Shown in pieces: positions 14,928 to 46,155 of a DNA stretch of 64,000 nt. The notes beneath the pieces are model-generated. The model saw nothing but the letters and a program-made list of their open reading frames with translations. It did no database searches and was not told the DNA's origin. Origin of the DNA: a bacterium. GTDB taxonomy: Bacteria; SM23-31. Position 1 is the first letter of the stretch. Each line of letters opens with the position of its first letter. Where the stretch lies: contig CBDFMG010000005.1 in assembly GCA_965249485.1 (NCBI GenBank), forward strand, positions 97,337 through 161,336, written 5' to 3'. Both the position numbers and the translations under genes were made by a program.

Positions 14928-17846
14928 CTACAGGACACCGCGCTCTTCTAACTCTGCACTTATCTTTGCATGATCCTTGCTCATTATATCGTCTGAAAGC
15001 ATTGCAAGCAGTTTGGTGTCAGTCATCTCGCTAAAGTCAATGTCACTGTCTATGACTGGTCTTTCTGTCTTCTGCATTTCTGATCCGTCGTCAGCAGTTT
15101 TCTCTATCTTTGCGTCTACATCATCATCACCTGCTTCTGGTACTGCGTCATCACCTTCCTCTTTTTTCACGTCATGGTTTTTCTGCATCTTTGCGTCTGC
15201 GCCTCCTATAAGATCCTCGTCTTTCATTGTAGGATCCATCCTCTCGTCATAGACCACCAGAATTCCCTGTTTTTTCGTAAAATGTCTGTCGCCGCTTCCG
15301 TCAACTGAACCCCTCTTGTATTGCACCTCCATCGTCTCCCTTCGCACTGCCTTTTTCATTATCATGTTTGTGATTGCGTTGTGTACCTTGTTTTTTGAGA
15401 CGTTTATGCCGAGTTTTTTGATTATTTCTTCGTCATCTATCTTGTGCCCTGCACCCTTTTGTATGATCTCAAAAATACTGTACTCCAGATCATTCATGTA
15501 GGGCCCACTCTTCCCACGAACTGTGTTTGTCTGAGCTTCGCCTTCTGCCTCCATCTCTGCTCTGGTCTTTACAATGCATGGTTCCGGATCAGTCCCAGTA
15601 GCGGTAAATGACTCCTCAATGTTTTTGGATTTTGCAGTCTTGTTTGCAGATTCCAGCTGGGCAATATCCGTACTTGTTCTTACTGGTTTCTTTGTGTTTT
15701 TTTCCTCCTCTGTCATCTTCAGCACAGAGTCTATGCCGCGCACCTTCACCTTGGACAATATCTCGTTGTATGTGTCTGGCATCTTTTGCTTTCCCTGTAT
15801 CACACTGACGTGGTTAATGACGTCCATGTACATCCCCTTTGGATTCGGATGTTTTTTGTAGATTGCAGCCTCCAGCTTTTTCCTGTGATTCTCCCCAAAG
15901 CAGACAAACCACACCATGTAGCCTGCCTCAAAATTTTTAGTGTAGTTCTGCACTGCCTGCTTTATGTGCTTTGTGGGGCCTGTCTCCACCTCTATTGCAA
16001 GCTTGTTGTTGTCATTCCAGTGGAATGGATCATACGTCTCAAGCCCATCCTTGTCCTTTAGCACCTTTGGCTCTATTACCAAAAGATCTGCCGCGTTCTC
16101 CGAGCTGTCACCCAGGTCAGGTATGCAGTACCTGTGCTGCTTCATGTTCAGATCCATGAGACCAAACATGATTGCCAAGTGCACCTCGCCCCCAGCTCTC
16201 CTTCCAGCGGCAGACTGCGAAAGATACGTGCTGTACGTCTTTGAGCTGACAACATATCGCTTCATTGTCTCATTCTCGTCCCCGTCATCGGTGCCAGGAT
16301 ACATTATCTTGATGTACCTTTTTCTCACAAGACTGTCAAGTGCAACTGATATCGGCTTTTCCTTCAGACTGGGAAAGATAATCTGGACTCTTGTAAATAT
16401 CTCATTGCGGTACCAGTCTCTCTGATCAAAATGCATCAGGTGAATTATGGAACACTCCAGAGGGTTGAACAGAAGCTTGCCAAGGTTCTGCGTAGGCGCA
16501 TACTTTTCTATGGATACGTCCTTTCCCCATCTCTTTAGCGATTCCCTTGCAACGTCCTTCCACTCCGATACTCTTCTTCCAGGAAGCGGGACAGGCCTTG
16601 CACGGAATGTGGCACTTGCGCCGACCCCTGACTCGTCAGTGGACATGACAAACGTGTGGTTTGGAAGCCTCTGCATCTGGTCTGCTGTCACAGATATCTG
16701 GCTATTCAAAAGGCTTGCAGTGTTAAAATCGCATTTTCCAGTCATTACGGTCTTGCATGTTCCGGGTATCTCGTCGGCAAAGGTCTTGTCATATGCATTG
16801 CATGTCTGCGTTGCCAGCGTGACCTTTATGCCGAACTTTCTTAGTGCCCTAAGCATCTCAGACATTGTCATGTTTGAGAACATGTGAGCCTCATCAACGT
16901 ACACGTAAAAAGGGTTCTTTCTTATCTCGGAAAGATCCTCGTCCAGGATGTCCATTCTTCGCTTTGCCTCAACATGCAGCATGTTCAGAAATATCGAGCC
17001 AAGAAACTTTGCAATGTCATCGCTTGCACCAGTAGACAGGTCAACTACGAGGATCTTTTTCTCGCTGATTACCTCACTGATATCAATGCTGGACTCCGTG
17101 CAGTCAAACATTGCAGCGACAGTAGGCGTCGCAAGAATCTTGTCTATCTTGTTGTATGCTGAGCTTCCGGCATCCTTTGAGTACTGCTTGTGAAATATCT
17201 CCCGCCAGAAGTGCTTGACGCCCGGCGATGCGACATTTTCAAGTATCTCTTCTCTTGATGACTCGTCAGTAATCATAGATGAGATAAACCCAAGGGAGTT
17301 GTATCCCTTTGACTCGACTAGCGCGTTTGCGGCATTTCGCAGTACGGTCTCAAGTCTTGGACCCCATGAGCCCATGTACAAATTGTACAATGTATTGACA
17401 AATGTCATCACCACCACATACCTCTCGTTCTCACTTTTCACCTCAAGCGGGTTTACCTGTACTGTCTTTCCAAACCTGTAAAGCGTTGCCGGATTCACGT
17501 AGATGACGTCCTTCCATCTCTCCTTTGGTATCATGGACATGATGTCCCTTGCAAGCTCGCCGTGCGGATCAATTATCATGACCCCCTGCTTTCTCATTAT
17601 GTTCTGGTATGCAAGCAGTTTGAGAATTGATGATTTTCCGCATCCCGGAAAACCAAATATTGCCATATGTCCCCGCTCAGTCGAGGTGATTCCAAATGCC
17701 CTGTTTCCCCCAACAACAACGGCATCAGGATCATCATGTTTGAATCCGACAAAGTCAATGTTTGACTTTTCCCATGATGACTCTTTTGACGGCTCTGTTG
17801 CCTCTATCTCTTTCTTTTTTTTCCAGAACATTTTATCAGCCGCCAC
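14928..17846 (-). CDS. Large P-loop ATPase of the HerA/FtsK/VirD4 superfamily, coupling-protein-like, with a C-terminal winged helix and acidic tail
   Basis: Walker A FGFPGCGKSS. It is followed about 25 aa later by IIDPHGE, compare DPKGE in VirD4 and DphGEY in HerA. Walker B VYVDEAH. 972 aa, no TM segment. Overlaps the upstream membrane-protein gene by 11 nt. Confidence 0.55.
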   Translation of the reverse strand: MAADKMFWKKKKEIEATEPSKESSWEKSNIDFVGFKHDDPDAVVVGGNRAFGITSTERGHMAIFGFPGCGKSSILKLLAYQNIMRKQGVMIIDPHGELARDIMSMIPKERWKDVIYVNPATLYRFGKTVQVNPLEVKSENERYVVVMTFVNTLYNLYMGSWGPRLETVLRNAANALVESKGYNSLGFISSMITDESSREEILENVASPGVKHFWREIFHKQYSKDAGSSAYNKIDKILATPTVAAMFDCTESSIDISEVISEKKILVVDLSTGASDDIAKFLGSIFLNMLHVEAKRRMDILDEDLSEIRKNPFYVYVDEAHMFSNMTMSEMLRALRKFGIKVTLATQTCNAYDKTFADEIPGTCKTVMTGKCDFNTASLLNSQISVTADQMQRLPNHTFVMSTDESGVGASATFRARPVPLPGRRVSEWKDVARESLKRWGKDVSIEKYAPTQNLGKLLFNPLECSIIHLMHFDQRDWYRNEIFTRVQIIFPSLKEKPISVALDSLVRKRYIKIMYPGTDDGDENETMKRYVVSSKTYSTYLSQSAAGRRAGGEVHLAIMFGLMDLNMKQHRYCIPDLGDSSENAADLLVIEPKVLKDKDGLETYDPFHWNDNNKLAIEVETGPTKHIKQAVQNYTKNFEAGYMVWFVCFGENHRKKLEAAIYKKHPNPKGMYMDVINHVSVIQGKQKMPDTYNEILSKVKVRGIDSVLKMTEEEKNTKKPVRTSTDIAQLESANKTAKSKNIEESFTATGTDPEPCIVKTRAEMEAEGEAQTNTVRGKSGPYMNDLEYSIFEIIQKGAGHKIDDEEIIKKLGINVSKNKVHNAITNMIMKKAVRRETMEVQYKRGSVDGSGDRHFTKKQGILVVYDERMDPTMKDEDLIGGADAKMQKNHDVKKEEGDDAVPEAGDDDVDAKIEKTADDGSEMQKTERPVIDSDIDFSEMTDTKLLAMLSDDIMSKDHAKISAELEERGVL

Positions 17847-19710
17847 CTCCCCCGAGATTGAACATCTTGATTACTATTGGTATTGCATACATTGCAATCA
17901 TCGTGTTCACTGATACAATGATTACCGGAGCCGTATCCTTTACGGTGTATGAGACAATCTTTGCGGCTACAAATCCTGTGGGAATTACTGCAAGTGCAGC
18001 CATCACCTCTATACCGTCGATATATCTCTCGTCAATTGCCCCCATTGACGAGAGAAACGGAATGTTTACGTCGCTGGGTATATCCGGTCCGCCTGCAAAC
18101 ATGGATATCATCATGTGTGATATTCCAAGCATCAGAAAAGGGCTGGCATATACTATCATGCTCATTGAGCGCAGTCCCTTGCTTACGCGCTCCTTTGTCT
18201 CATGTACGGATATGACAAACTCTGTAATCGTGTTAAAGTTCTCAGTGGAGCCCCCGCCGCTCCTGTACGTCTTTGCAAGAAGAAACATGATGAACTTTAC
18301 GTGGATTGACTCAAAGGCCATCTTTGAAACTGCGATATCAAATGTCTCACCCTTCTTGATTTTGGCAGCAATACTGTCGATAATTCTGTTGAACTGCTTC
18401 TTGTACGAGTGGTTTTTTGCCTGCCTCTGTATTATCTGTCCGATGTTTTCACCGGTCTTTGACATATCTGTGACGTCCCGCATGAACTCTGGAAGCATCG
18501 AGTCTATCACCCTTATCTCTGTGAGCTTGTTTCTTACCATCATAGTATTGACTACAGCCCCGATTAGAAATCCGCTGACAATAGTCGTTGCAAGATCAAC
18601 TCCTGCAAAATATACAATGACTGCTACCATGATTCCCGCAATAGGGCTGATTGGCGTTATCTTTATCTGGTTTCCGGTAATCGGCTGGTTGGTGTTGAGT
18701 ATTATTACCATAAGCAGCGCAATGAATGGCGACATGACTGTTCCTAAAAGAAGCATGGTGCCTGTCGTCTCAGATGTCCCAATCATTCCCGATGCCATGA
18801 TCATCAATGGCATGATAATTGAGACCATCAGTACTGCTGAGAATATCTCTTGTGCGCTCTTTTCATACCTATCCCAGGAGTCCCTGTACAGATGGAAAAA
18901 CTGCTTTGCCTTCTCTGAGGTGTAGCTTGGAACATCGCCAATGCTTGCAATCTTTGCAAGGTATCCGGAGATGAAGTTCCTGAACACCTCTGAGGGGTGC
19001 GATTCAGCATACACACTAAGTGACTCGTTTTGTGTAACGCCGATCATGTCAACGCGCTTTACTATCTCCCCTGCATCCTGCGCAATTGCATTAAACACCC
19101 TTACGCCACGAATGTCCTTAAATGAGTGATACAGCCCCCGCCCTATTGTCTGCATGATATTGACATAGCACAAAAAGTACGCCATCTCTTCCTCTATTCT
19201 TGACTTGCGTTCTACTATGGTCAGTCTTAGCTGAATGTATGGAGACATATAGATAATTGCAGGTACGGCACAAACTACCAGAAATATCTCGCTTGCAGTA
19301 ATTCCAAGATAAATTCCAATGACAGTTGTGGGGACAAACACTGTAACTGCAATGCGTGTCATGGTTGTTGCCATTTTTTCTGCGTCATAGTTTTTACCTG
19401 TCTTTGGAATCTGCGCCAGTATCTGACGCTCGTTGAACACCCGAAGACGTACCAAGTATTTCAGCTTTGATTCCAGAAACACAAATATCTTTTCAAGCGA
19501 TGTCTGCTTGTACTTGTAAATCCATATTGTCCCGTCTGATGATCTTGCAGACAGTTTTGGCTTTCTAAAAAGTGGTGAGAAGAGGGACACTATGCAACAG
19601 GCAACAAGAAACCCTGACAGCATCACATAATCAAAGCCGCCGTCAGAAAACAGCACGACACACCACAGCAGACTGAAAAAGAATCCAGATACGACAAGAT
19701 GGGTCTTCAT
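17836..19710 (-). CDS. Polytopic membrane protein, TadC/FlaJ/GspF-like (two repeated cytoplasmic-domain plus TM modules)
   Basis: 624 aa with at least 8 predicted TM helices. Internal duplication of a soluble domain followed by TM triplets is the GspF architecture. Translationally coupled to the ATPase gene. Confidence 0.4.
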   Translation of the reverse strand: MKTHLVVSGFFFSLLWCVVLFSDGGFDYVMLSGFLVACCIVSLFSPLFRKPKLSARSSDGTIWIYKYKQTSLEKIFVFLESKLKYLVRLRVFNERQILAQIPKTGKNYDAEKMATTMTRIAVTVFVPTTVIGIYLGITASEIFLVVCAVPAIIYMSPYIQLRLTIVERKSRIEEEMAYFLCYVNIMQTIGRGLYHSFKDIRGVRVFNAIAQDAGEIVKRVDMIGVTQNESLSVYAESHPSEVFRNFISGYLAKIASIGDVPSYTSEKAKQFFHLYRDSWDRYEKSAQEIFSAVLMVSIIMPLMIMASGMIGTSETTGTMLLLGTVMSPFIALLMVIILNTNQPITGNQIKITPISPIAGIMVAVIVYFAGVDLATTIVSGFLIGAVVNTMMVRNKLTEIRVIDSMLPEFMRDVTDMSKTGENIGQIIQRQAKNHSYKKQFNRIIDSIAAKIKKGETFDIAVSKMAFESIHVKFIMFLLAKTYRSGGGSTENFNTITEFVISVHETKERVSKGLRSMSMIVYASPFLMLGISHMMISMFAGGPDIPSDVNIPFLSSMGAIDERYIDGIEVMAALAVIPTGFVAAKIVSYTVKDTAPVIIVSVNTMIAMYAIPIVIKMFNLGGGGG

Positions 19711-21734
19711 AGAACCTCACCGATTAGCACTGCCATGTTTACCGGAACTATCAGTGATGCCAGCACCATGTTTTTGAACAGCGGACTTGCCCTCTCCATG
19801 TCTGCAATGTGTGGCGCTGCGACATAGTATGCAGCATGCACTGTATCAAAGAACGGCGACCATCCAGAACCGATCATGTCTGCCCTGTATTCCCGCAGTA
19901 CCTGCACCTGATGTGCCAAGGACGTGCCATATACTGCAAGTGCTATTGGACAGTCATTTTCTACCGTCTCTTTTACTGCATCATCATCTGCCTTTTCCTG
20001 TACGTCATCATCTGCTGCCTTTGCCAGATCAATCTCGCAGCCATCTACCATGTCTGCAAACTCGCTTGTAAGGCAGCCTACGCTGTCAGGTCTTGAAAGT
20101 CCACTCTGTATGAGTTGCTGGTTTAGCGATATGCCAGAGCCGGTGCAGTACACGACAGAATAATACTGCCTGGTAAGTGCATCTGAGGATATCCTGGAAT
20201 CAAGGCCCAGCGTCGTGTCCCTGTCCACCACTGCAACAGAGCCGACCGGGCATATCTGACTGACTGACTCGGCAGTGGCATTGACTGGTATTGCAATAGA
20301 CGTGGTGACTCTCTTCTGACCAATCCTCAAAGTATCGCCGTCTATGATCTCTGCGATATGGTCTGCAAAACATCCTGCTTCATGGCCGTGGTCTGTAATG
20401 TTTTGAATGTTGATCCCCCTGCATTTTATTGACTTGTGCTCTGATATCATAAACGGAGTCCGTCCCTCGGCATTTTCCGTACGGATCACAATCTCGTATT
20501 TTCCGGACTTCCATGTAGGCTGTGTTATCACGTCAAACCTGCCAGTGCCGTCAGACTCGATTTTACTCTTTTGTCCATCGATGCGGTTTCCGTCAGGATC
20601 ATAAACTGATATTGATAAAGACTCTCGCGTCGTCGTCTTGCCAGGATGTGCAAACTCTGCACTGATTATCTCTCCGGCATTTGTGTGGCGGTACTTTGCA
20701 AGGTCAAGGATTATCTTCACCGGTTTTTTTATCTCTTCCTCTGCAAAATCTAAAATGGAGTCGGCACTCTCGGGAACTGCGATTCCGCTTGATGATATGC
20801 GTATCGTGCCTTCCATCCAGGGATGATACAGACAGGAGTAAAGCACTGTTCCCGGCTCTGCAAACTTTATTATCCTCGAGTGTCCTGACTTTAGGATATT
20901 TGTCTCAAAAAAGTTAACAGTCTTCTGCAGCTTGTCATCTATTGGCTTTTGCTCTTCTCGTCCATACCCGAGCGCAATTGAGTGGATGTTGTGTATCTGA
21001 TCAGAGTCGTTGTACCATTCCACTGTCTGTCCAGCATCAATGCTTACCTTCGGTCTGTCGTAGCATGCCTGCTTGCCGGTCTTTGAGCAGCCGTCTATCT
21101 CGACTGGGTTGATTGTAACTGTGGCGTCTCCGCGTTCAAGTCCTGCCAGCTTTGTGTAAAAGACGGTACTTCCAATGTTATACTTTGCGGTGTCATACTT
21201 TTTGTGTCCGGTACTGTCATACCCCAAGTCTGCCGTAATAGAATATGTCGCAGACACAGTATGCCTGCCTTCTGTATCCCTTGAGCCGATAACTGGATGC
21301 CATACGGAAAAAACACTTTCGTTTCCTGACATGACAGTGTGTGTCTGCTGGCTTTTGTCAGGTGCCGTGATTACAATTGTAACTGCTGACTTTTTGGTGC
21401 CGTCGGCAAGTGTGCCATATATGAGAATGTTTGTCTGTACATTTTTTTCCATGTGCATGATCTCATCTGGTGCGACAATTGTCGGACTGCCAGTCGACTC
21501 CAGATTTGCGTACCTGCATTCATGGATTGACTGGCATGATGCATATGCCGGTATGATCATCATACAACAACAACAGCAAAGCAAAACGGCAGTCATTATT
21601 ACAGGGCTCATTTTTTCACCATTGATGCTATTCCCTTTGGAAGCTTTTTTGGAATCTTGACTGATCTTGATTTTTCCTTTAGTGTAGAAACATAGTCCCT
21701 CAGATTCATAATGACGTCGGGGGATTTTTTCCAC
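19707..21734 (-). CDS. Secreted multidomain protein with a cupredoxin (type-1 copper) domain and an SNase-like domain
   Basis: Internal signal peptide MSPVIMTAVLLCCCCCMMIIPAYA. Cupredoxin ligands are HNIHS ... YSCLYHPWMEG (Cys-x2-His-x2-Met). Downstream AEIIDGDTLRIG matches the thermonuclease V/IDGDT motif. Overlaps the next gene by 4 nt. Confidence 0.5.
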   Translation of the reverse strand: MEKIPRRHYESEGLCFYTKGKIKISQDSKKASKGNSINGEKMSPVIMTAVLLCCCCCMMIIPAYASCQSIHECRYANLESTGSPTIVAPDEIMHMEKNVQTNILIYGTLADGTKKSAVTIVITAPDKSQQTHTVMSGNESVFSVWHPVIGSRDTEGRHTVSATYSITADLGYDSTGHKKYDTAKYNIGSTVFYTKLAGLERGDATVTINPVEIDGCSKTGKQACYDRPKVSIDAGQTVEWYNDSDQIHNIHSIALGYGREEQKPIDDKLQKTVNFFETNILKSGHSRIIKFAEPGTVLYSCLYHPWMEGTIRISSSGIAVPESADSILDFAEEEIKKPVKIILDLAKYRHTNAGEIISAEFAHPGKTTTRESLSISVYDPDGNRIDGQKSKIESDGTGRFDVITQPTWKSGKYEIVIRTENAEGRTPFMISEHKSIKCRGINIQNITDHGHEAGCFADHIAEIIDGDTLRIGQKRVTTSIAIPVNATAESVSQICPVGSVAVVDRDTTLGLDSRISSDALTRQYYSVVYCTGSGISLNQQLIQSGLSRPDSVGCLTSEFADMVDGCEIDLAKAADDDVQEKADDDAVKETVENDCPIALAVYGTSLAHQVQVLREYRADMIGSGWSPFFDTVHAAYYVAAPHIADMERASPLFKNMVLASLIVPVNMAVLIGEVL

Positions 21735-24661
21735 ACAAGCACAAACGGCACAATGACTGATGATGCGATTAGCAGAATCAGAACAGTGTATGTCTTCTCA
21801 TAGACTACGGTGCCAGTTACTGACTCGTCGGCCACAAATAATACTGACTGCCCATCTGCTGATACCTTGGCATCCTCTGGAAGTCCTATCCACTCTTCTG
21901 GCACGTGCCATATCAGTCCGTACAGTTCAGTTGCAATGGGCGCATGCAGTACAACGACATCGCCGTACCTGTGATGGCCATTCCCTGAGATGTCTGCAAA
22001 CACATCATTTGAGTCCAAAAATGCGCCAAAGTCAATCTCTATCACCCTCTGATATGCTCCTGTTATCGTAGAGTCCTGCGTTATCCTTAGCGTGAACTTT
22101 TCTGCATGGTTTATCTCCTCGCCGTTAAGGCTTAGCTTCTGCAATTCATATTGCCTGTCAGTGCCGACATTAAGATCTGCATCGATGCTTATCTCAAAGA
22201 CCCCGGGATGTATGGTATAGTACAGCCCATTTTTCACGTTTATCTTTTCCGCTGTTGCCGATGACTCCAGATCAAACGATGCTGCAACTGAAACGCCGTC
22301 ATCTGCAATTGCATTAAACACGACATCGACTAGCTCCTCTACTGTAAAGTTTACATTTTCCGTGTATTTCTTCCAGCCGTCCTTCTCCACATTTACGGTA
22401 ACTGAATACTGGCCAGGTGCCGTAGGCGTTGCGACGTAGTTGTCTGACGCATCAACCTCAAAGTCAAGTCCGGATATGGACACATCAGGGTTTTGTAGCG
22501 CGCCAGTAAAGATGTCCAGTATTATCTCTGATCCAAGCTTTAGAACATTGGGTGTTGGTGATATTACCTGAACTTCGGACTCTGCGTCATTTGCAAATGA
22601 CTTGATCACAGCTGATCCGAGATACCTGTTGTCAGAAATTATGTTCAGATTTGTAGTGCCTTCATTTTCTACAACAAACCGCACATGGTCGTCTTTAACA
22701 TTTGCAGTGATTTGCTCAGAAGAGATGTTCAGGCTGTCAAGATCAGTAATCAGTGCAATCGGAATTCCGTTGGAATCTACTGCATGAATCGCAACAGGAA
22801 ACTCTTTGAACACATTTACTCTTGACGGTGTCCATATCTCTATCCCTGTCTTTACACCTGACGTGTCAAGGCTGGTGGTCTCAGAGTTGATCCCTGGAAT
22901 CTGGACAAATATTTTTGCGCCCTCCTTGAGATACGTACCTGTAATGATGTTGGTTCCGCCAACCCAGTAGTCGTTTATCCCAATGTCTGCAAGCGAGTTG
23001 CCGGCTTGAATCACGTTTGTCTTTTCAGTGTCTACTATCCCCCCAACATCCGTGATGTGTCCTGACTTGTCCACAATTGACATGTACGCAATATCGCCAT
23101 GAGTCCCCAAAGGTATGGGAATCGGCGTTACCTGCAGTATGTGCTTGAAGCCATATGCAGTATCGGAGTTGAACTGTATCTCCGCGCTTTCAGCATTGCT
23201 GTTTTGCACGGATATGGCATGCTCCCCTTTTGTGTTGATGTCAATGGGTATGTCCATTGCAGAGAATGTAAAATGTGTGCTGTCCTCATCAGATAAAATT
23301 GTGTCAAATTTTATCTCTGTTGGATATTTCAGTCCGTCATCGCCGGATACTGACACTACTGTGTCAAGTGATGTGATTGGGTTTAGATTCCCGTCATAGC
23401 GCTCAACGAATGCATGCGTGTCATTTAGTATGTGATACAATCCAACTGTTGCCCATGCCGTGTCTGCTGGCGTAGTTGGGTGCACCCACAGCTTTAGAAC
23501 ATCTATCTTTGGTCTTTCGCTGAGCTGGACTGGCGGCATTACCAGAATCTCCTCTGAATGGCTGCCATACCCTGGAACTGAAACCGTGATTACTACTGCG
23601 TCATTGTAATCTTCTGAGGCGTCTTCTATGTAAAAATGGGAACGCAGTGTTCCGCGTGACATGTATGTGTGATACAGCTCATCATCATTCTCGTTTGTCC
23701 TGAATGATACCTTGTCAGGATCAGAGCTTGAAAGATAGACGTCTAGAACCTCGTCGGGGATGTAGATAGAGTCGTCCTGCTCAAGCCATACGTAATAGTA
23801 TCCTATGGAATTAGCAAGTGCGATGTCTGGTGCGATTCCGAGACGCACCTTTGGACTGTTAGTATCATATAAGATTTCAAGCGAGTCTGATTCAAGCCCG
23901 TCTGATGTCGCATAGATTGTTCCGTCCCCACCAACACGCACTACGGCATTGGCGCTGTACTGACCCTCCAGAACACGGAGTGTCACTGTATCAGTCAGTG
24001 TGCCGCCATTGCTGAACTGCACGGCAGGCGAGGAGGAGCTTATTGTTATCTCCGTCTCTTGCTTTGCGATGATTGGTATCTGGTGGTTGTCAACCAGAAA
24101 CACCTTGACTGGCACGTCGTCTGTAGATACAGTAATGGAGTCATCAGATATCGGCGCTGATATCATCAGCGCAGTAGGATGTAATGCAACCGAATAAACA
24201 GTAGAACTGTCCTGTGCCACTGCATCGTTGGTTATGGCATGGACTGTGACTGTGCCGTCCTGCGGTGATTGCGGTGTAAGTTCAAAAATGACATGGTTGC
24301 TTCCGGTAGGAATTGCTACTGTACTTGGAATCTCAAGAAGGTTTGAATCAGTTGCAAGGGATACTGTTATGTCGTGACGTTTTGGCTCCAGTATTAGCAG
24401 TACCCCCTCATATGAAATGTCTGCAATCATTTTTTTTGGTATGTGCACTGAAAAATCCGCAACTATCTCGTCAGGTGATTCGGCAGCCGAGTCGGCGGCA
24501 GAGTCCGGACTAAGCTCTTCATCTGATACGTCGTCCACTGCTGCTGCGATGTCAGGATCTACCTGAGCAGATACAGGAACGGCTGCTACTGCAAACAATG
24601 CAATGCACGCAGTGAGATATGCCAGATGGGTTTTCAAGGACTGCCGCCACCTGTAGCGCAT
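21608..24661 (-). CDS. Large cell-surface protein with signal peptide, Ig-like repeats and a C-terminal TM anchor
   Basis: 1017 aa. Signal LTACIALFAVAAVPVSAQ. C-terminal LILLIASSVIVPFVLVWKK anchor followed by basic residues. Confidence 0.5.
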   Translation of the reverse strand: MRYRWRQSLKTHLAYLTACIALFAVAAVPVSAQVDPDIAAAVDDVSDEELSPDSAADSAAESPDEIVADFSVHIPKKMIADISYEGVLLILEPKRHDITVSLATDSNLLEIPSTVAIPTGSNHVIFELTPQSPQDGTVTVHAITNDAVAQDSSTVYSVALHPTALMISAPISDDSITVSTDDVPVKVFLVDNHQIPIIAKQETEITISSSSPAVQFSNGGTLTDTVTLRVLEGQYSANAVVRVGGDGTIYATSDGLESDSLEILYDTNSPKVRLGIAPDIALANSIGYYYVWLEQDDSIYIPDEVLDVYLSSSDPDKVSFRTNENDDELYHTYMSRGTLRSHFYIEDASEDYNDAVVITVSVPGYGSHSEEILVMPPVQLSERPKIDVLKLWVHPTTPADTAWATVGLYHILNDTHAFVERYDGNLNPITSLDTVVSVSGDDGLKYPTEIKFDTILSDEDSTHFTFSAMDIPIDINTKGEHAISVQNSNAESAEIQFNSDTAYGFKHILQVTPIPIPLGTHGDIAYMSIVDKSGHITDVGGIVDTEKTNVIQAGNSLADIGINDYWVGGTNIITGTYLKEGAKIFVQIPGINSETTSLDTSGVKTGIEIWTPSRVNVFKEFPVAIHAVDSNGIPIALITDLDSLNISSEQITANVKDDHVRFVVENEGTTNLNIISDNRYLGSAVIKSFANDAESEVQVISPTPNVLKLGSEIILDIFTGALQNPDVSISGLDFEVDASDNYVATPTAPGQYSVTVNVEKDGWKKYTENVNFTVEELVDVVFNAIADDGVSVAASFDLESSATAEKINVKNGLYYTIHPGVFEISIDADLNVGTDRQYELQKLSLNGEEINHAEKFTLRITQDSTITGAYQRVIEIDFGAFLDSNDVFADISGNGHHRYGDVVVLHAPIATELYGLIWHVPEEWIGLPEDAKVSADGQSVLFVADESVTGTVVYEKTYTVLILLIASSVIVPFVLVWKKSPDVIMNLRDYVSTLKEKSRSVKIPKKLPKGIASMVKK

Positions 24662-25023
24662 TTTTGTTTGAGGGCGTCTATTGTGGATTCCAAAGTGTCT
24701 GCAAAATCATCGTTGCTGCCATGTACGATATCCCCATCCTGGGACTCTGTGAATATTCTCCCATCATCACACTTTATCATCAGGCCTGAAACGGCAGACG
24801 CGTCGCCCCATGTATTGTTCATGATGAGATTCATAGTGGAGTCACTTCCAGTGTGATTAAAGACTAACTTTACTGCAATGTCCTCTTTTACCCTCTCGTT
24901 TTGAATCATGTTGGATTCCTCCTTTTGCTGGCTTATCACGCTCTGACTGTTGTTATATGTGACAAACATTCCAATAATGGTTATAGCTATTACTACAATG
25001 CCAATCGCAACAATGATTCCCAT
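24634..25023 (-). CDS. Small N-terminally membrane-anchored protein, possibly pilin-like
   Basis: N-terminal hydrophobic segment MGIIVAIGIVVIAITIIGMF followed by a polar domain. 129 aa. Coupled within the operon. Confidence 0.35.
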   Translation of the reverse strand: MGIIVAIGIVVIAITIIGMFVTYNNSQSVISQQKEESNMIQNERVKEDIAVKLVFNHTGSDSTMNLIMNNTWGDASAVSGLMIKCDDGRIFTESQDGDIVHGSNDDFADTLESTIDALKQKCATGGGSP

Positions 25024-25053
25024 AAAACCAAATCCTCCCTTACGATAAAAGCC

Positions 25054-25884
25054 TCAATCAATCTCCCCGTCTGGCAGTCCGGCAGATTTTGATGAGATTT
25101 TTCCAAACTCAAAGTTGATCTTTGCAATGTCGTCTTTTTCTGGCATTACCAGAATTCCCATCATCTCAACATCAGACAGCACAATGCTCTTTGATGCTCC
25201 AAACATTGGAAACGAGAGGTTTCCTGTGTGTATTTTGGCAATGTGCTTTGGTTTCAGATTTTTTGACTTGAAGGCCCTGGTTGGGAAGACACCCTCTATT
25301 GCGTCAATGTCATCCTTTTTTCCTCCTCCTGCAAACATCTTGCACAGAAACAGGCTTCCTGACTGTATCTTTTGCTGGGCAATTTTGATCTTGTTTTGAC
25401 CCACTGCAGTTGCCTTTCCGGAACCTGATGAAAAGAACCTGAACATGCTGTCTGGAGACTGTCCACGTCCAAGCATTCTGATGTACTCATTTATCGGTTG
25501 TGCAGAATCAAGACGCCTTACATACAGTGCCAAAAAGGAGTTCCCTGACACTTCAGCGTTAAACATATCGTAGATTGATGTACGCTCCATCTCCTTTGGG
25601 GTTATTGGTATTGCGCAGTGGCGCCTCATTGAGTATTTTCGGTACATGGAATAATTCTCAAAGTCAAAGTCAGGACACAGTACTGCCTCCACTCCGTCCA
25701 TTCCGTCCAGTGTCACCCTGTGCTGCTCACTGACACGGATAAAGATCCGTACCTTGAGATTGTCTCTGCATACAACCAAAAGAAACCTCTCAAAGTGCGA
25801 TAGCATCTGTCTCATGTTTGTCTCCCCTGCCTCTTTGTCATCTATTCTGTACGGCCTTATCTCATACCATCTGTTTTTGATCAT
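25054..25884 (-). CDS. Cytoplasmic hypothetical protein
   Basis: 276 aa with no TM segment and no motif I recognise. The gap to the upstream gene is 2 nt. Confidence 0.4.
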   Translation of the reverse strand: MIKNRWYEIRPYRIDDKEAGETNMRQMLSHFERFLLVVCRDNLKVRIFIRVSEQHRVTLDGMDGVEAVLCPDFDFENYSMYRKYSMRRHCAIPITPKEMERTSIYDMFNAEVSGNSFLALYVRRLDSAQPINEYIRMLGRGQSPDSMFRFFSSGSGKATAVGQNKIKIAQQKIQSGSLFLCKMFAGGGKKDDIDAIEGVFPTRAFKSKNLKPKHIAKIHTGNLSFPMFGASKSIVLSDVEMMGILVMPEKDDIAKINFEFGKISSKSAGLPDGEID

Positions 25885-25885
25885 T

Positions 25886-28078
25886 CTAGCACCCGTGTCT
25901 TACCGCCCAGTCATGAGACCCAAACTCACTTGAATTGCAAAATGAAGTTATCACGTATCCGATTCCAGACTCCAAAAGATACTCGTTAAGATTCACGCCA
26001 TTGCAGTGAATCACGCCGATTATTCTTTCATAGCTTCCCTGTGTCTGAAAATCATCCTCGTCTACAATAACCTCAGAGCCTACAGGACAAATGCCTGCAA
26101 CCAGATCCTTGGCATAAGGTCCTGCACTCTCAGACAGCTCAGGAGCTGACGCAAGTGCAAATCTGATATTCTGTCCGCCTGTTATCTTTATGGTATCACC
26201 GTCAATTATCCTCACCGCATGAGTCTCGATGCACCTTGCGTTTCCAATGCATGATGGCGCGGACTGAATGTTGTCGTTTTCAGGTGGTGGTACTGCGTCT
26301 GGCTGCAGACTGCCACCAAGCGGTGACACAATCTCCAATGTCTCTGAATATGCAAATACTGGAATTGTAAGAGTTCTATAATCAGACCTGGCATTATCTT
26401 CGGTGTGTTCTGTTTCTTTGCCGTCAAGATATACTACAAATGTAGTATCCTCTCCATTCTCACCATCACGCGCATCCAAAACATCTCTTGGAATTCTTAC
26501 AACCAGGTCAGCGTCAACTGCGTTCTCAGACTGGTCAAAAAACAGCACCACAGAATCGTCGTACTTGAATGTCTCATGAATTATCCTACCTTGAATATCA
26601 AAGGATATCTGCTGGGCTTGCACATCATCTTCATCACCGCCGCCCGCATCGGAAGAAGAAGAAGTACCTGCCGTATTTTCTTTTCCTGTCTTCACTGCTG
26701 AGAGACTGTCAAAGTCAAATGACGTGGTCGCAGTTGCAGTGCCGTGATTTATTGTGGCTGACATCTTGCCGATAATATCCCAACTGCTTGTGTTTACCTC
26801 TATATGGTATGTGCCGTCCTCGTCAATTGACACTGGAATTGATGAGAAAGGCATGCCTTCAATCTCTGTCTGAATTATAGCTGAAAATGAGTTTACAGAT
26901 GTTCTGGATGCAATCCCATCAAAGCTGATTGTCTCGCCCCTTGTGTAAAAGTCCTTCTCAGTTGATATGGAAAGTATCTCTGTGCTTGAGGCGGGGTTTG
27001 ACGGATCCAGTTTTCTGTCAAGCCATTCCAAGAACTGCTCATACAGCTTGTCTGAATCAATGTCAAGTCCTGGAATTATGGAGCCTGCATTATCTGCATC
27101 GTTTTGTATTTGCGGAATATCCTCCTGCAGTTCCGGTGCGGTGGCTGGTTCTTTTGGGATTTTGTCTGGTGCTGCAGGATCTGTCTCTGGAATGTCTGGC
27201 ACTGCCTGCTCTATCTTGCTTGTGTGAATCAGCTTGAACCAGAACTTATTGTCAACGTATGTGTCCCTTAGTATGATGGTGTCAGTTAACACCTTGCCCT
27301 CAAGTGGAAAAGCAATGCCATCTGCAATGCTTACCTCTACAATCGGCCTGTCTGATAGATACTTTACAGTATGAACTCCATTGTCATAAAACAGATTCTC
27401 GTACTGGTACTGCGGATGCTTTGAGGTCACAATCACTACAAAGTCTTTGTCGTGGCTTACCCATTCCTCACCCACACGGATTATGGGGGGAATCTTATAC
27501 ACGTTTCCACTGCCGACAGATATCTTTCCGCCTATGAGCATTATTGTGTCGTATATCGAATCAGCATATCTGTTACCGGCAGGATGCGTTGTCTTTAACT
27601 CAAATCGGTCACTGGAAAGAAATGTGTAATGCTGTATGTTTGCAGGATCCGCATTTTTGGCATACCTGATGTTCATCGAGTCCACATCAAAGTCGCCTGT
27701 CGCCTTTTGGTTTGTCCCAAGATATCCATACTCGTCAGGTGTTAGATATCCCAGAACCTCCTGAATCCTTGCATTGACTATCCAGTATGATCCAAAGTCA
27801 TCTGCGGTCTTTCCGGCAAACTCCAATGTCGCCTCATAGCACACTGCATTGGGTTTTGTAACGCATATAAGATAACCGTACACATCGCCTTCTTCCAGTC
27901 CTTCCCCAAGACTCCATCTCGCATCATGCGCAATTATGTCTTCGGCCAGTCCGCCATATGCAGACAGCAGTGATGACAGTGGCAGCAATAGCGCTATCAA
28001 CATCATCAGCGATATACTCAGTGATGCCCGTCGTGATAGTGATGGCAGTTGTGGCATTAGCATTGACGGAAAACTCAT
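25886..28078 (-). CDS. Secreted large protein with a C-terminal staphylococcal-nuclease (thermonuclease) domain
   Basis: Signal LLPLSSLLSAYG. The C-terminus RIIDGDTIKITGGQNIRFALASAPE...YERIIGVIHCNGVNLNEYLLESGIGYV matches the SNase fold with its catalytic R/D/E region. Overlaps the upstream gene by 4 nt. Confidence 0.6.
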   Translation of the reverse strand: MSFPSMLMPQLPSLSRRASLSISLMMLIALLLPLSSLLSAYGGLAEDIIAHDARWSLGEGLEEGDVYGYLICVTKPNAVCYEATLEFAGKTADDFGSYWIVNARIQEVLGYLTPDEYGYLGTNQKATGDFDVDSMNIRYAKNADPANIQHYTFLSSDRFELKTTHPAGNRYADSIYDTIMLIGGKISVGSGNVYKIPPIIRVGEEWVSHDKDFVVIVTSKHPQYQYENLFYDNGVHTVKYLSDRPIVEVSIADGIAFPLEGKVLTDTIILRDTYVDNKFWFKLIHTSKIEQAVPDIPETDPAAPDKIPKEPATAPELQEDIPQIQNDADNAGSIIPGLDIDSDKLYEQFLEWLDRKLDPSNPASSTEILSISTEKDFYTRGETISFDGIASRTSVNSFSAIIQTEIEGMPFSSIPVSIDEDGTYHIEVNTSSWDIIGKMSATINHGTATATTSFDFDSLSAVKTGKENTAGTSSSSDAGGGDEDDVQAQQISFDIQGRIIHETFKYDDSVVLFFDQSENAVDADLVVRIPRDVLDARDGENGEDTTFVVYLDGKETEHTEDNARSDYRTLTIPVFAYSETLEIVSPLGGSLQPDAVPPPENDNIQSAPSCIGNARCIETHAVRIIDGDTIKITGGQNIRFALASAPELSESAGPYAKDLVAGICPVGSEVIVDEDDFQTQGSYERIIGVIHCNGVNLNEYLLESGIGYVITSFCNSSEFGSHDWAVRHGC

Positions 28079-28773
28079 TGAATCACCTTGAAAACAATCT
28101 CTCTTTTAGTTAATACAGGACCTGTGGTGCCATCTGGAAGTACCTCACACACTGCAACTGTCTTGCTTCCGGCACATTCGTCAGGATCAAGGATTGCAGT
28201 CACCAGTCCTGCCGATGAAGATATTGTAGTTGTTACTGGCGTATCGTCAAGTAAGATTCTCACCTTTTGTTTTATGACAAGCCCCGTTCTGGTTTTTAAC
28301 TTAATATCTATTGTCACTGGAGAGTTTGGTTCGACATTTACAGTCATTGGCTCTATTACATCTGGCTTGCTTGCAATGATCTTCTGCCCTGTTGCCTTTC
28401 CAAGCATCTTTGATGACTTGCCAAATACCTTTGACTTTGTCTTTGTCTTTTTTGGATCTTTTTTGCCGTACAGTCCAACCGTTCCCTTGAGGTATGCATA
28501 CAGTCGTCCCTCATACGATATTACGGGAGGGCGAATCATTGCAAATAATATTACTATTATGAACGCGGCTGCGCCATACGAGATATTGCCTGTTGCCTGC
28601 ATTGTGCCAAACAAAAGTGGCAGCCCGACACCAAACATGATGATTGACTGGTGACCGTTGATGAATCCGATAACCGGAAGTGTGATGATGGCCTGTGACA
28701 GTGATGTTGATTTCCAAAACCAAAACATCTTAAATTCTGTGTAACTCAATGTATGGAAATAATCCATTTGCAT
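28075..28773 (-). CDS. Membrane protein with an N-terminal 3-TM block and a C-terminal beta-rich domain
   Basis: Hydrophobic segments in the first 100 aa, then a Lys-rich linker and a soluble domain. First gene of the coupled minus-strand run. Confidence 0.4.
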   Translation of the reverse strand: MQMDYFHTLSYTEFKMFWFWKSTSLSQAIITLPVIGFINGHQSIIMFGVGLPLLFGTMQATGNISYGAAAFIIVILFAMIRPPVISYEGRLYAYLKGTVGLYGKKDPKKTKTKSKVFGKSSKMLGKATGQKIIASKPDVIEPMTVNVEPNSPVTIDIKLKTRTGLVIKQKVRILLDDTPVTTTISSSAGLVTAILDPDECAGSKTVAVCEVLPDGTTGPVLTKREIVFKVIQ

Positions 28774-30671: not shown

Positions 30672-31304
30672 CTACCCTGGCCTGACACGTACAGTGTATG
30701 CATCGGAGATTAGAGTGTCCTCACCAGATTCAAACTGAAGCTTCAGGGTTAACCTGTCAGAGATGTTTACTACCTTGCTGATGTCTGGACTGGTTGTTTC
30801 TGTAACTTCAATTTTGAACGCATTGGTTCTGCCGCCTTCAAGTACAGACTCTGTCACTGTACCTACCGCATCACCAACAGAGAATCCTTTGAAAGTTCCA
30901 ATCCCTAAAGCAGCAGTACAACCGGTGAAAGTGGCAGCGCATCGGTTGGATGAAGCAGTGCCGTCTGTCAAAGTCAGAATTCCGGTATCGGCATCCTGTA
31001 TGATTCTCAAATCAGACACACTGATACTGTCAATGTAGATCTCAGAAACGGTTATCTGGCCGATGTTCTTGATTGCTCCGGTAATGCTTAGCGTGTCCCC
31101 GTCAAGCAGTGCGCTGAGTGTGGTAACTGTAATTCCACTGTTTGACAGGAATGGATCTGCCTGCTCCTGGAAAATAAAGTATAATCCGCTACCGGCAGCA
31201 GCAGTGACTCCCAATGTGATAATCGTTCCAAATATTGCAGACAGTGCAGCTTTCTTTGTTCGTGCTAGATGTCGTTTTCGTTGTTTATCATTCTCAATAT
31301 TCAT
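30672..31304 (-). CDS. Secreted or membrane-anchored hypothetical protein
   Basis: N-terminal basic stretch followed by the hydrophobic segment LSAIFGTIITLGVTAAAGSGLYFIF. 210 aa. Confidence 0.4.
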   Translation of the reverse strand: MNIENDKQRKRHLARTKKAALSAIFGTIITLGVTAAAGSGLYFIFQEQADPFLSNSGITVTTLSALLDGDTLSITGAIKNIGQITVSEIYIDSISVSDLRIIQDADTGILTLTDGTASSNRCAATFTGCTAALGIGTFKGFSVGDAVGTVTESVLEGGRTNAFKIEVTETTSPDISKVVNISDRLTLKLQFESGEDTLISDAYTVRVRPG

Positions 31305-31962: not shown

Positions 31963-32046
31963 CGCTAACTGCCACCGTACAAGTACGGCGGTCTTCTCGC
32001 CGTGTGATTATAATTTCCCCTTAAATACAGTCTTCCTTTTTGTAGA

Positions 32047-44658: not shown

Positions 44659-46155
44659 TTGTTTGGATGGAAGAAATCAGAAAAAGAAGAGTCCGTAAAG
44701 TACAAGCTATCGCACATGGATGTTGACGTTACAGGGCTTGACATAGTGGAGGAATACAAGGTAGGCAAGGTAAAAGTCTACATCACGTCAGACTCAAGAT
44801 ACCTGGTAAAAGAGCCGCCTATAGGCGACTCTGCAGTGAATTTGTACAATACCATCATCGACAAAATTAACATGGGAGTCGAGCTAACAGACGCGGATAA
44901 GGACCCCAAAGTTCTTGCCGACAAGCTGGAAAAGGCATTTTGGGATACTGCAAAGAGACTTGAAAGGTATGACGAGGCGACACGGATGTTTCCTGACCTG
45001 ACGTACTACATTCACCGCGAGATGCTAGGTTATGGGATTATTGATCCGCTGATGAAGGATCCTGCAATCGAGGATATCCTGTGCTCTGCATACGACAGAA
45101 ACGTCCGCGTGATACACAAAAGATATTCCGGCATTCACCACAGCCTTGAGACAAACATTGCATTTGAGAGCGTCACTGAGATGGAGAGGTTCATCCAGAA
45201 GGTGTATAGTAAGACAGGTACGGAGCCCACAGAATCAAGACCGATGTCTGTCACACACATGGCAGACGGCTCCAGAATCTCTGCCACCTTTGGAAAACAG
45301 GTGACACAGCCTGGCCCGATAATTGCGATACGAAAGTTTCCAACAGAGCCGTTTACGATAACCGACATGCTAAAGACAGGGCACCTGTCATCTCAGATGG
45401 CAGCATACATCTGGACTATGCTTGATGCAAAGGCAGTGGGGCTGGTAATCGGTGTCACAGGATCCGGCAAGACTACCCTGCTTTCTGCGTTTGTATCGAT
45501 GATGAACCCGGGGTGGAGGATACTCACAATTGAGGATACGCTGGAACTGCAGATACCGCATGAGGACTGGGTTAGGGCAAACACCAGAAAAAGCTACGGA
45601 ATGCTTTCAGAGAAATTCGACATACCCATCAGAAGCCTGATTGACATGTCACTTACACAGAGGCCGGACTACGAGATTGTCGGCGAAATCAGACTGGATG
45701 ACATGGATGCGCTGTTTCAGAGTGTCGGCACCGGACACGGCGGGTTGACAAGCTTTCACGCATCAACCCCAGGGGGCGCACTGACTCGAATGAGGGGAAA
45801 CAAGATCAGCGAAGGCGAGCTTGCACTGCTGTGGTTTACGGTGCACTCTGCCAGCATAACAAGGGACGGAGTCGACACAAGAAAGGTGACAGATATCTCA
45901 GAGATAGTGCCAGACGAGATGACCGGCACAGTTGCAGTTAATAACATATTCAAGTATGATATTTTTAAGGACAAGTTTGTGCAGAACCAGTCACTTGAGG
46001 AATCATACAGATACCAGGAGGCCTTGCAGATATGCGGAATCCTAGATCCAAAAGAAGACATGAAAAAAAGAATAGCCCTCCTTGAGCAGTGTGTCAGCAA
46101 GGACGTCTCTGACGTGCACAAGGTCTTTGAGATTCTTAGAAGATATTACGAATGA
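44659..46155 (+). CDS. VirB11/FlaI/GspE-family secretion ATPase
   Basis: Walker A GVTGSGKTTLL. Asp box ILTIEDTLEL. His-box-like RPDYEIVGEIR. 498 aa. Confidence 0.7.
   Translation: MFGWKKSEKEESVKYKLSHMDVDVTGLDIVEEYKVGKVKVYITSDSRYLVKEPPIGDSAVNLYNTIIDKINMGVELTDADKDPKVLADKLEKAFWDTAKRLERYDEATRMFPDLTYYIHREMLGYGIIDPLMKDPAIEDILCSAYDRNVRVIHKRYSGIHHSLETNIAFESVTEMERFIQKVYSKTGTEPTESRPMSVTHMADGSRISATFGKQVTQPGPIIAIRKFPTEPFTITDMLKTGHLSSQMAAYIWTMLDAKAVGLVIGVTGSGKTTLLSAFVSMMNPGWRILTIEDTLELQIPHEDWVRANTRKSYGMLSEKFDIPIRSLIDMSLTQRPDYEIVGEIRLDDMDALFQSVGTGHGGLTSFHASTPGGALTRMRGNKISEGELALLWFTVHSASITRDGVDTRKVTDISEIVPDEMTGTVAVNNIFKYDIFKDKFVQNQSLEESYRYQEALQICGILDPKEDMKKRIALLEQCVSKDVSDVHKVFEILRRYYE

Follow-up and report, generated by a model that had tools for sequence, protein, structure and literature searches.

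Eight open reading frames (ORFs) on the minus strand at 14928-28773 of the 64,000-nt stretch of DNA analysed here (hereafter the window) probably make up the central transfer operon carried by an integrative-conjugative element (ICE) of a Nitrosopumilaceae-type ammonia-oxidising archaeon, in which a pilus-like contact apparatus would be combined with a type IV secretion system (T4SS)-like translocon. The ORFs are numbered g1 to g8 in transcription order (Table 1). They reside in an island whose deviant GC content, VirB4, VirB6-like proteins, FlaI-like ATPase, integrase by the rpS2 gene, insertion sequence (IS) elements, miniature inverted-repeat transposable elements (MITEs) and defence or toxin-type cargo support this assignment. 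Domain homologies, island context, synteny and co-occurrence were established, and from them we infer all the functional steps, the direction of transfer and the nuclease activities described below. A first-pass annotation of the same DNA had already proposed a DNA-translocation machine containing a TadC/FlaJ-like protein and a HerA/FtsK/VirD4 ATPase, with which our profile matches agree. It also held that no archaeal system of such composition had been described; in fact, thaumarchaeal ICEs have been reported (PMC5797428, PMC6563490), and the remaining part of their set is encoded in the same island. Hidden Markov models (HMMs) put g7 in a known pilus family (UpsF/TadC) and g8 among type IV coupling proteins (T4CPs), an outcome that by the first-pass annotation's own account speaks against its proposal.

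The coordinates of the eight ORFs, which range from 129 to 1017 aa, were reproduced exactly as first annotated. On the longest ORFs, g1/g2 overlap by 4 nt, g2/g3 are separated by 1 nt and g3/g4 by 30 nt, and the remaining junctions are overlaps of 28 nt (g4/g5), 127 nt (g5/g6), 4 nt (g6/g7) and 11 nt (g7/g8). The tight packing by overlaps and short spacers that had been claimed was thus confirmed, while the statement that overlaps stay within 54 nt does not hold at g5/g6. When we used likelier starts, namely those called on the metagenome contig L001, which is 100% identical, and Met42 for g6, g4/g5 and g5/g6 became ATGA-type 4-nt overlaps and g7/g8 a 4-nt spacer, making the packing even tighter. 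Because the ORFs are of this length and their order is kept in other genomes, the eight-gene arrangement is not a product of chance, and the earlier view of a single co-directional, tightly coupled gene set is supported. The GC content is 0.45-0.47 at ~15-39 kb and 42-50 kb and 0.32-0.37 in the flanks, consistent with the earlier view of a GC-richer, horizontally acquired region. A T-run lies ~130 nt 3' of the g8 stop, and the GC content drops at the same place. Directly upstream of g1 and on the same strand, a gene for a 78-aa protein with hydrophobic segments (28823-29059, -) overlaps the end of that for a bacterial-PH-domain protein (29037-29480, -), so that the transcription unit may start further upstream; none of the related loci searched contained a homologue of the latter protein.

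These related loci, 54 genomic loci in total (labelled L001-L014 and so on), encode relatives of g8 and were searched with tblastn and iterative HMMs. All of them, and 271 of the 271 detected g8 homologues, belong to Nitrososphaeria. In the gene-neighbourhood comparison that the first-pass annotation had proposed, the order g1-g3-g4-g5-g7-g8 is kept in 13 Nitrosopumilaceae loci (L002-L014), Cenarchaeum symbiosum included. The locus of C. symbiosum A (L002; DP000238.1, 650329-672980) reads g2-g3-methylase-g4-g5-g6-g7-g8, followed by pilin-like and VirB6-like genes; pilin-like genes follow the ATPase gene in several Nitrosopumilaceae loci. The neighbours of the g8 relative in Nitrosocaldus-type loci are VirB4, a VirB6-like gene, a g1-like gene adjoining the VirB6-like one and a g3-like gene immediately upstream of the ATPase gene, and because of these neighbourhoods we regard g1, g3 and g8 as a T4SS-like core. 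The contig L001 (ENA ERZ26167216, 51.5 kb) has an operon whose proteins are 100% identical; TIR, IS110, PaREP1 and DDE genes follow downstream as in the window, and the contig then runs into homologues of 36121-37320 (85%) and 37339-39372 (97%), which in the window lie across the operon. This difference in gene order suggests a recent IS-associated rearrangement or a second copy of the element.

Pfam scans covered the eight proteins and 30 ORFs of the island and its flanks, and NCBIfam scans the eight proteins and selected island ATPases. By its sequence, g8 is related to the T4SS coupling proteins. It matched DUF87/HerA (34.7 bits, cutoff 23.2), TrwB_AAD_bind (24.8 bits, cutoff 20.5), AAA_10 and TraG-D_C in Pfam, and SXT_TraD in NCBIfam (4.6e-13); a match to CedD (1.2e-6) covers the surroundings of the P-loop only. 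A profile of 20 family members searched against PDB found Legionella DotL/IcmO best (3e-5), with TrwB at 0.01 and HerA at 0.11. Plasmid relatives, many of them on haloarchaeal megaplasmids, are 23-27% identical to g8 and annotated as T4SS DNA-binding or TraM-recognition proteins. The assignment to the HerA/FtsK/VirD4 superfamily made before is matched by these profiles. The Walker A, DPHGE and DEAH motifs were also found as described, the last in the form VDEAH, and the hydropathy agrees with the reported lack of a transmembrane segment: no 19-residue Kyte-Doolittle window of g8 reaches a mean of 1.6, the criterion we used, either at the N-terminus, where a membrane anchor might lie, or elsewhere.

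The C-terminal region of g8 is conserved family-wide at aa 440-700, with H556, D577, D587, E619, E621 and K637 invariant, and found no match by sequence in Pfam or PDB. Its structure model (predicted local distance difference test (pLDDT) 83.8) shows a winged helix and then an alpha-beta-beta-beta-alpha-beta domain with the elements in the expected order, for which the best Foldseek matches were the restriction endonucleases BsaWI (E 6.8e-4, prob 0.96), EcoT38I and AgeI and the nuclease Cdn1. We take D587, where strand 2 begins, and E619-x-E621, where strand 3 ends, to resemble the PD...ExE variant of the PD-(D/E)xK site, of the BamHI type. The model suggests, with modest confidence, that this region is a winged helix joined to a restriction-endonuclease-like fold. 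A second winged-helix signal near aa 780-850 is weak. The Nitrosocaldus relatives align to aa 30-457 of g8 only and are without the C-terminal extension.

The polytopic GspF/FlaJ-like membrane protein of the first-pass annotation is g7, which matched T2SSF (PF00482) in two stretches (46.3 bits, cutoff 25.2) and has 8-9 hydrophobic segments. Its NCBIfam matches were UpsF (5e-67), BasF (2e-32) and ArlJ/FlaJ (2e-5); the UpsF score, 226.7 bits, falls short of the equivalog cutoff (400), so that g7 is no UpsF orthologue. The FlaI-like ATPase gene is located 25 kb from g7 in the same island. In Nitrososphaera loci (L037 and L055), the g7 homologue adjoins and overlaps a T2SSE ATPase gene, indicating that the natural partner of g7 is the FlaI-like ATPase and that the VirD4-like g8, with which it had been paired before, is not the partner to be expected. 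A further product of the island (Table 1) is pilin-like, as judged by inspection of its N-terminal sequence. In L012, a homologue of its gene directly precedes g1; in L002-L006, L013 and L014, homologues directly follow that of g8. No prepilin peptidase was identified in the island.

The small membrane protein g1 has a single strong transmembrane-like segment (aa 60-88) and no match in Pfam or NCBIfam. Its homologues head the operon in L004, L010 and L012 and lie directly upstream of a VirB6/TrbL-like gene in eight Nitrosocaldus-type ICE loci; g1 is likely to be a core component of the transfer apparatus. As for g3, neither a transmembrane segment nor a sequence-family match was found, nor any PDB match by sequence. 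Its family is very small, with 35 clusters in 1.84 billion representatives by exhaustive search, from which the g3 homologues were taken; word-indexed homologue searches gave two matches for g3 and one for g2, and the g2 homologues were drawn from the related loci. The structure model of g3 (pLDDT 90.4, predicted template-modelling score 0.87) has a VirB4/TrwK-like fold, and because g3 is without a P-loop, we read this likeness as a resemblance to the non-ATPase, N-terminal domain of VirB4. Comparison of the g3 family with the island's own VirB4 by hhalign gave no signal. On the model, g3 is a candidate adaptor that would dock the transmembrane-less g8 to the membrane complex.

The N-terminal anchor of the small protein g4, noticed already in the first pass, was seen again as a transmembrane segment. 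Family matches of g4 in Pfam and NCBIfam are sub-threshold only; it precedes g5 in all Nitrosopumilaceae loci with the operon and is possibly a pilin or a FlaF/FlaG-like accessory protein. The large surface protein g5 is membrane-anchored as described, with an N-terminal signal and a C-terminal transmembrane anchor by hydropathy, and gave weak Ig-like matches. It is kept upstream of g7 in L002-L014, shows ~25% identity to its counterparts in Nitrosotenuis and Nitrosotalea loci, and is a candidate adhesin of the mating apparatus.

Outside the operon, the island encodes a VirB4-type ATPase that matched CD1110-family VirB4 (1e-32), VirB4_plasma (8e-31), TraC (5e-23) and CedB (4.5e-6) in NCBIfam, and two VirB6/TrbL-like polytopic proteins. 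A homologue of the longer one in L001 (97% identical) has a precomputed TrbL_3 match, and the paralogy of the two is based on tblastn co-hits. A relaxase family was not matched by any ORF scanned. To the left of g8 are the TIR protein and IS110 and DDE transposases, and an SPFH protein is also encoded in the island.

The first-pass annotation described two secreted proteins that end in thermonuclease folds. This is true of g2. By single-sequence phmmer, its C-terminal domain matched Staphylococcus aureus thermonuclease (SNase) in PDB at E 1.7e-7, and a family profile made of the window, C. symbiosum and L006 proteins did so at E 5e-13; the Pfam SNase family PF00565 was matched by two of the three members (C. 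symbiosum and L006, best 5.2e-6) and not by the window copy. The alignment spans ~95 residues and keeps the IDGDT motif. The catalytic and Ca2+-binding residues of SNase are D21, D40, T41 (a main-chain ligand), R35, E43 and R87, of which D40 is the least critical by mutagenesis. g2 retains D21, R35, E43 and R87 and has Ala for T41, and 3/3 members have Ser in place of D40. Because the substituted D40 is the least critical residue, nuclease activity of g2 is plausible, and the domain is probably still active.

The claim does not extend to g6, whose SNase-like domain is internal, has lost the Glu43 equivalent and the APE motif, and does not conserve IDGDT/DGD in relatives. This domain found no PDB match, alone or as a profile, and was homologous to that of g2 (BLASTP 6e-11, hhalign probability 99.3%); its reading as an independent SNase was rejected, as it has no similarity to SNase except via g2. 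Its sequence fits a degenerate paralogue of the g2 domain that is probably non-catalytic. The cupredoxin site C-x2-H-x2-M reported in one of the two proteins is present in g6 together with an upstream His, and these Cu ligands are kept in the window protein and five homologues. The domain matched Copper-bind (PF00127; 32.4 bits, cutoff 21.2) in Pfam and amicyanin (2e-8) in NCBIfam, so that a type-1 copper site is predicted; CFI_box_CTERM was matched as well (5e-8), and an MG2/Ig-like domain, with MG2 matched in Pfam, sits between the cupredoxin and SNase-like domains. Among the related loci, the g2 gene is confined to L002, L004 and L006 besides the window. Both g2 and g6 are present in the window and these three loci, and both are absent in L010 and L012; from this shared pattern, we consider them accessory and linked.

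We propose that the products act as two modules. A type IV pilus-like module, comprising the g7 platform, the FlaI-like ATPase, the pilin-like protein, possibly g4, and the surface protein g5, would join donor and recipient cells as Ups pili do in Sulfolobales. A T4SS-like DNA translocation module would consist of VirB4, the two VirB6-like channel proteins, g1 and the motor g8, with the anchorless g8 docked to the membrane complex by the VirB4-N-terminal-domain-like g3. The winged-helix and restriction-endonuclease-like domains of g8 would recognise and cut the element DNA in place of a relaxase, and its ATPase would then pump the DNA. The accessory surface proteins g2 and g6, present in a sub-lineage, most likely would bind or trim surface DNA in mating, or clear extracellular DNA at the junction. 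Taken as a whole, this would be a relaxase-free thaumarchaeal conjugation in which a VirD4-like motor fused to a winged helix and a nuclease cuts its own substrate, g3 tethers it and g2/g6 handle the DNA outside. We offer this cut-and-pump scheme tentatively and would sooner expect it to fail than to hold. It covers the g8 relatives in Nitrosopumilales, Nitrosotalea, Nitrosotenuis and Nitrososphaera, and its g2/g6 part one Nitrosopumilaceae sub-lineage.

Several points weigh against an ICE transfer operon. To our knowledge, no thaumarchaeal ICE has been experimentally shown to transfer. Searches of the window revealed neither attachment-site repeats nor the borders of the element, the left GC boundary being negative as well, so that the ICE may be decayed or IS-rearranged. 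The tRNA-Lys(CTT) gene, located mid-island between the VirB4 and VirB6-like genes, was considered as an integration target and rejected, since searches by exact 13-mers and local alignment gave no duplicated fragment of it in the window. Pfam detected no TFIIB or ParB among the 30 island and flank ORFs, those of <100 aa having been scanned in part. The longer VirB6-like protein matched TrbL at E 0.0026 and 18 bits, under the Pfam cutoff of 25.9, and the endonuclease-fold call on g8 comes from a single Foldseek E of 6.8e-4 with low template-modelling scores and no sequence-family match. Finally, a 2019 survey lists a single integrated element of C. symbiosum, at 1.128-1.158 Mb, which is not the syntenic locus (PMC6563490). 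Because that locus is unlisted as mobile, a chromosomal, host-serving version may exist.

This leads to the alternative that the whole system is domesticated and serves host DNA exchange or import, as a thaumarchaeal counterpart of Ups plus Ced in which pili aggregate the cells, a T4SS-like channel imports or exchanges chromosomal DNA and the surface SNase protein processes what comes in. Such systems exist: DNA is imported by Ced and Ted, two domesticated relatives of T4SSs, and the exchange requires Ups pili (PMC9905601, PMC11868833), and an extracellular nuclease suits uptake better than export. The C. symbiosum locus not being classed as an integrated element, and the lack of att sites in the window, would also fit. 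However, the island around the window copy is 12-13% richer in GC and contains an integrase, IS elements and cargo, another assembly has the operon, 100% identical, in rearranged surroundings, the ICE gene set is present in the loci of the Nitrosocaldus relatives, and most relatives can do without g2 and g6. We therefore consider a host-serving system improbable.

The TadC-like platform, large surface protein and pilin-like protein could instead belong to an adhesion or biofilm pilus, and the secreted SNase domain to the scavenging of extracellular DNA for phosphate or nucleotides or to biofilm remodelling, with g8 unrelated to DNA transfer; copper-site domains of the g6 type are common in thaumarchaeal surface proteins. 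This is very unlikely, because g8 falls in the T4SS coupling-protein branch and has DNA-binding and nuclease-like domains, g3 has a modelled VirB4-like fold, VirB4 and VirB6-like genes are in the same island and conservation within the operon is lowest for the nuclease genes. We give even less credence to contact-dependent antagonism, where the SNase-domain protein would be a toxin displayed or injected by a T4SS or type IV pilus-like apparatus. Some bacterial T4SSs deliver toxins to prokaryotic targets (PMC12857230), and g2 is secreted and retains R35, E43 and R87 in its nuclease domain, but g2 and g6 carry Sec-type N-terminal signals and not T4SS substrate features, no immunity-like small gene is conserved beside g2, g6 is catalytically degenerate and the island otherwise looks like a typical ICE. 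The competence analogy (EndA/ComEC/ComFA) of the first-pass annotation was rejected, as no homologous component was found in the Pfam and NCBIfam scans of the eight proteins or the Pfam scans of the 30 ORFs, and it shares only the general idea of a surface nuclease, a membrane protein and an ATPase with the window, where the membrane protein is a pilus platform and not a DNA channel and the ATPase is a T4SS-type motor and not a DEAD-box helicase.

An ICE transfer operon, the reading we prefer, can be compared with known elements. Thaumarchaeal ICEs were described as carrying VirB4 and VirD4 ATPases, VirB6, VirB3, TadC, the ATPases FlaI and PilT, a prepilin peptidase as well as pilins with no relaxase (Krupovic 2019, PMC6563490). 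Two of them, NCAV2-E1/E2, are in Ca. Nitrosocaldus cavascurensis (Abby 2018, PMC5797428), and NitAR2-E3 of Nitrosopumilus sp. AR2 and NitNCS1-E3 are further named examples (PMC6563490). The portion of the ICE-survey supplement available to us lists TadC, FlaG/FlaF-family pilins, a type IV pilus-associated surface protein and FlaI for the Nitrosopumilus ICE NitAR2-E3; it also lists a hypothetical protein (cog.015040) directly upstream of the Nitrosocaldus VirD4 gene, the position of the g3 homologues, and the only 'thermonuclease' in that portion is in a non-conjugative element. Like these ICEs, the window has VirB4- and VirD4-like ATPases, TadC, FlaI-type, pilin-like and putatively VirB6-like proteins, a tyrosine integrase, a deviant GC content and no relaxase, the absence of which was likewise reported for archaeal conjugative elements (PMC6563490, PMC9905601). 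It differs in that neither att sites nor, among the ORFs scanned, TFIIB or ParB turned up; a TFIIB homologue, usually accompanied by ParB, is said to be typical of thaumarchaeal ICEs (PMC6563490), and the window has a TBP-like gene instead.

The kind of element is thus already known, and the finding as first stated is mostly explained by the known class. The Nitrosopumilaceae operon is a new variant, in which the TadC-like gene stands directly against the VirD4-like gene, unlike in published ICEs, and which combines the two in one operon with surface SNase-like proteins. Relative to PMC5797428 and PMC6563490, what is new is the modelled VirB4-like fold of g3, the putative winged-helix and endonuclease-like extension of the g8 ATPase, and the linked g2/g6 pair, one active-looking and one degenerate, by which the window sub-lineage adds two secreted SNase or SNase-like proteins and a predicted type-1 copper site. 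A full-text literature search found no paper linking thermonuclease and VirB4 in archaeal conjugation.

Cooperation of the Ups pilus with the T4SS-like Ced system in archaeal DNA exchange has been shown experimentally in Sulfolobales (PMC11868833, PMC9905601). Like Ups plus Ced (CedA/A1/A2/B/D/E; Ted in Thermoproteales), the window joins a pilus platform and its ATPase with a VirB4/VirB6-like DNA channel, and the best named match of g7 is UpsF. The homology to the VirB4 N-terminal domain is split between CedB and CedD (PMC11868833), and g3 may similarly be a free-standing VirB4-N-terminal-like protein, as far as its model indicates. In contrast, Ced and Ups are chromosomal, ultraviolet-induced and DNA-importing, whereas the window system is on a GC-deviant island with an integrase; moreover, Ced has neither a VirD4-like protein nor a surface nuclease. 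As in the T4CPs (TrwB of R388, VirD4, TraD and DotL/IcmO), g8 is a P-loop motor of the FtsK/HerA/TrwB superfamily. It differs from them in having no N-terminal transmembrane anchor and no cognate relaxase, in its predicted C-terminal winged helix and PD-(D/E)xK-like domain, and in being only 23-27% identical to plasmid T4CPs. Unlike the SNase family PF00565, g2 has D40 changed to Ser, is Cys-rich and is fused to a secreted protein of ~600 aa.

Table 1 Features of the operon and its surroundings in the window.
Feature	Position	Strand	Description
g1	28075..28773	-	232 aa; small membrane protein; hydrophobic N-terminal part, beta-rich C-terminal part
g2	25886..28078	-	730 aa; secreted; signal or anchor at the N-terminus, anchor lacking at the C-terminus
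g2 staphylococcal-nuclease domain	25889-26251	-	aa ~610-730; Cys-rich
g3	25054..25884	-	276 aa; cytoplasmic protein; modelled fold probably like the non-ATPase (N-terminal) part of VirB4/TrwK
g4	24634..25023	-	129 aa; N-terminal transmembrane anchor, aa 1-25
g5	21608..24661	-	1017 aa, probably 1009 aa (start 24637, L001 gene call); large surface protein
g6	19707..21734	-	675 aa on the longest ORF; probable start Met42 at 21611, restoring the signal peptide
g6 cupredoxin	20796-21068	-	aa 223-313; predicted type-1 copper
g6 SNase-like domain	20049-20381	-	aa ~452-562; degenerate
g6 CFI-box C-terminal domain	19752-19952		with transmembrane segment
g7	17836..19710	-	624 aa; polytopic; type IV pilus platform protein of the TadC/FlaJ/UpsF type
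g8	14928..17846	-	972 aa (GTG start), or 967 aa with start 17831; VirD4/TraD/DotL-like FtsK-HerA-superfamily ATPase
g8 ATPase domain	16527-17729	-	aa ~40-440
g8 winged helix	16242-16469	-	aa ~460-535; predicted
g8 PD-(D/E)xK-like nuclease fold	15837-16199	-	aa ~550-670; predicted structure
g8 C-terminal end			acidic tail and possible second winged helix
Pilin-like protein	30672..31304	-	210 aa; N-terminus KKAALSAIFGTIITLGV...; transmembrane segment aa 19-45
VirB4-type conjugative ATPase	33031..34956	+	Pfam AAA_10 6.5e-12, P-loop_TraG 3.9e-11
VirB6/TrbL-like polytopic membrane protein	37339..39372	-	many transmembrane segments
Paralogue of the VirB6/TrbL-like protein	43100-44428	-	
FlaI/UpsE-type type IV pilus assembly ATPase	44659..46155	+	Pfam T2SSE 4.5e-28; NCBIfam FlaI 3e-75, BasE 5e-67, TadA 9e-40
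Tyrosine recombinase (integrase)	54801..55538	-	245 aa; Pfam Phage_integrase 2.3e-12; right edge of island
Ribosomal protein S2 gene	55917-56540		Pfam Ribosomal_S2; adjoins integrase
TIR-domain protein	13830-14537	-	directly 3' of g8; defence/toxin-type cargo
Fic/DOC protein	40535-41176	+	defence/toxin-type cargo
PIN-domain protein	49555-50232	+	defence/toxin-type cargo
AIPR abortive-infection protein	57893-59641	+	defence/toxin-type cargo
M91/M10-like metallopeptidase	9591-10232	-	defence/toxin-type cargo, in or around island
tRNA-Lys(CTT)	35369-35457	-	Rfam 47.7 bits; 87-89 nt, longer than usual, possibly intron-bearing
MITE copies	1025-1186; 12329-12352 + 13692-13817; 51821-51989; 55599-55767		
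Partial MITE copies	4937; 8758; 12046; 62215; 62342		
~50-nt hairpin repeat	917-967; 31963-32013; 34956-35006; 44477-44527; reverse at 32959, 43052, 49017, 50290		

Other mobile and repeated DNA was also seen in the window. Direct repeats of 169 nt, which start at 51821 and 55599 and recur at 1025 and 12329, were tried as att sites and rejected, as their 24-nt terminal inverted repeats mark them as MITE copies. This MITE-like element is ~165 nt long with the terminal inverted repeats GGTTCTGGTAAATTTTGGTGATCA, and its ends are apparently common to elements with DDE transposases. Two 98%-identical direct copies bracket 3.8 kb (51821-55767) holding the integrase and an 871-aa N6/N4 DNA methylase (52130-54745), so that this segment could be a composite mobile unit, or the 5' end of the integrase gene may be disrupted by the MITE. 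An IS110-family element (12353-13691) has inserted into the copy at 12329, splitting it exactly in its palindromic end, which suggests that IS110 targets the MITE sequence. Integration into tRNA-Lys(CTT) has been reported for another thaumarchaeal element, NitClo-E1.

The TBP-domain protein (31398-31943, -) is 181 aa long with a single TBP repeat, and an inverted copy of the first ~120 codons of its gene lies 1.6 kb away in 29616-30629 (+), where it runs into a TnpB/Cas12f-like TNB-domain fragment. An 80-nt element with the palindrome TGTGCAAATTTGCACA occurs at 32860-32939 and 44541-44620 (99% identical), at 39210-39289 (71%) and partially at 41170-41221. This element lies upstream of two ATPase genes, by 90-170 nt for VirB4 and by ~40 nt for the FlaI-like one, and is a candidate shared operator, promoter or small RNA of the island transfer genes; it was not found upstream of the eight-gene operon. 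A repeat of ~50 nt, in which the perfect hairpin CCACCGTACTTGTACGGTGG is followed by CTTCTCGCCGTGTGAT, is seen at gene ends and between genes, mostly in the island, and may be a terminator or an element like the repetitive extragenic palindromic ones. Within an ORF at 6571-7587 (-), encoding 338 aa with no family match, tandem 90-99-nt repeats, up to 97% identical, occupy 6710-7170.

Ammonia-oxidising archaea are of global importance, and what is known of their conjugative elements comes from genome annotation only. The syntenic locus of Cenarchaeum symbiosum, unlisted as mobile in the 2019 survey, is shown here. How archaeal conjugation prepares its DNA without a relaxase is an open question (PMC6563490, PMC9905601), for which the operon offers testable candidates: a coupling-type ATPase with DNA-binding and endonuclease-like domains of its own, a separate VirB4-N-terminal-like adaptor and an accessory pair of surface nuclease-like proteins. 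If true, the cut-and-pump route would be mechanistically distinct from the relaxase-led conjugation of bacteria.

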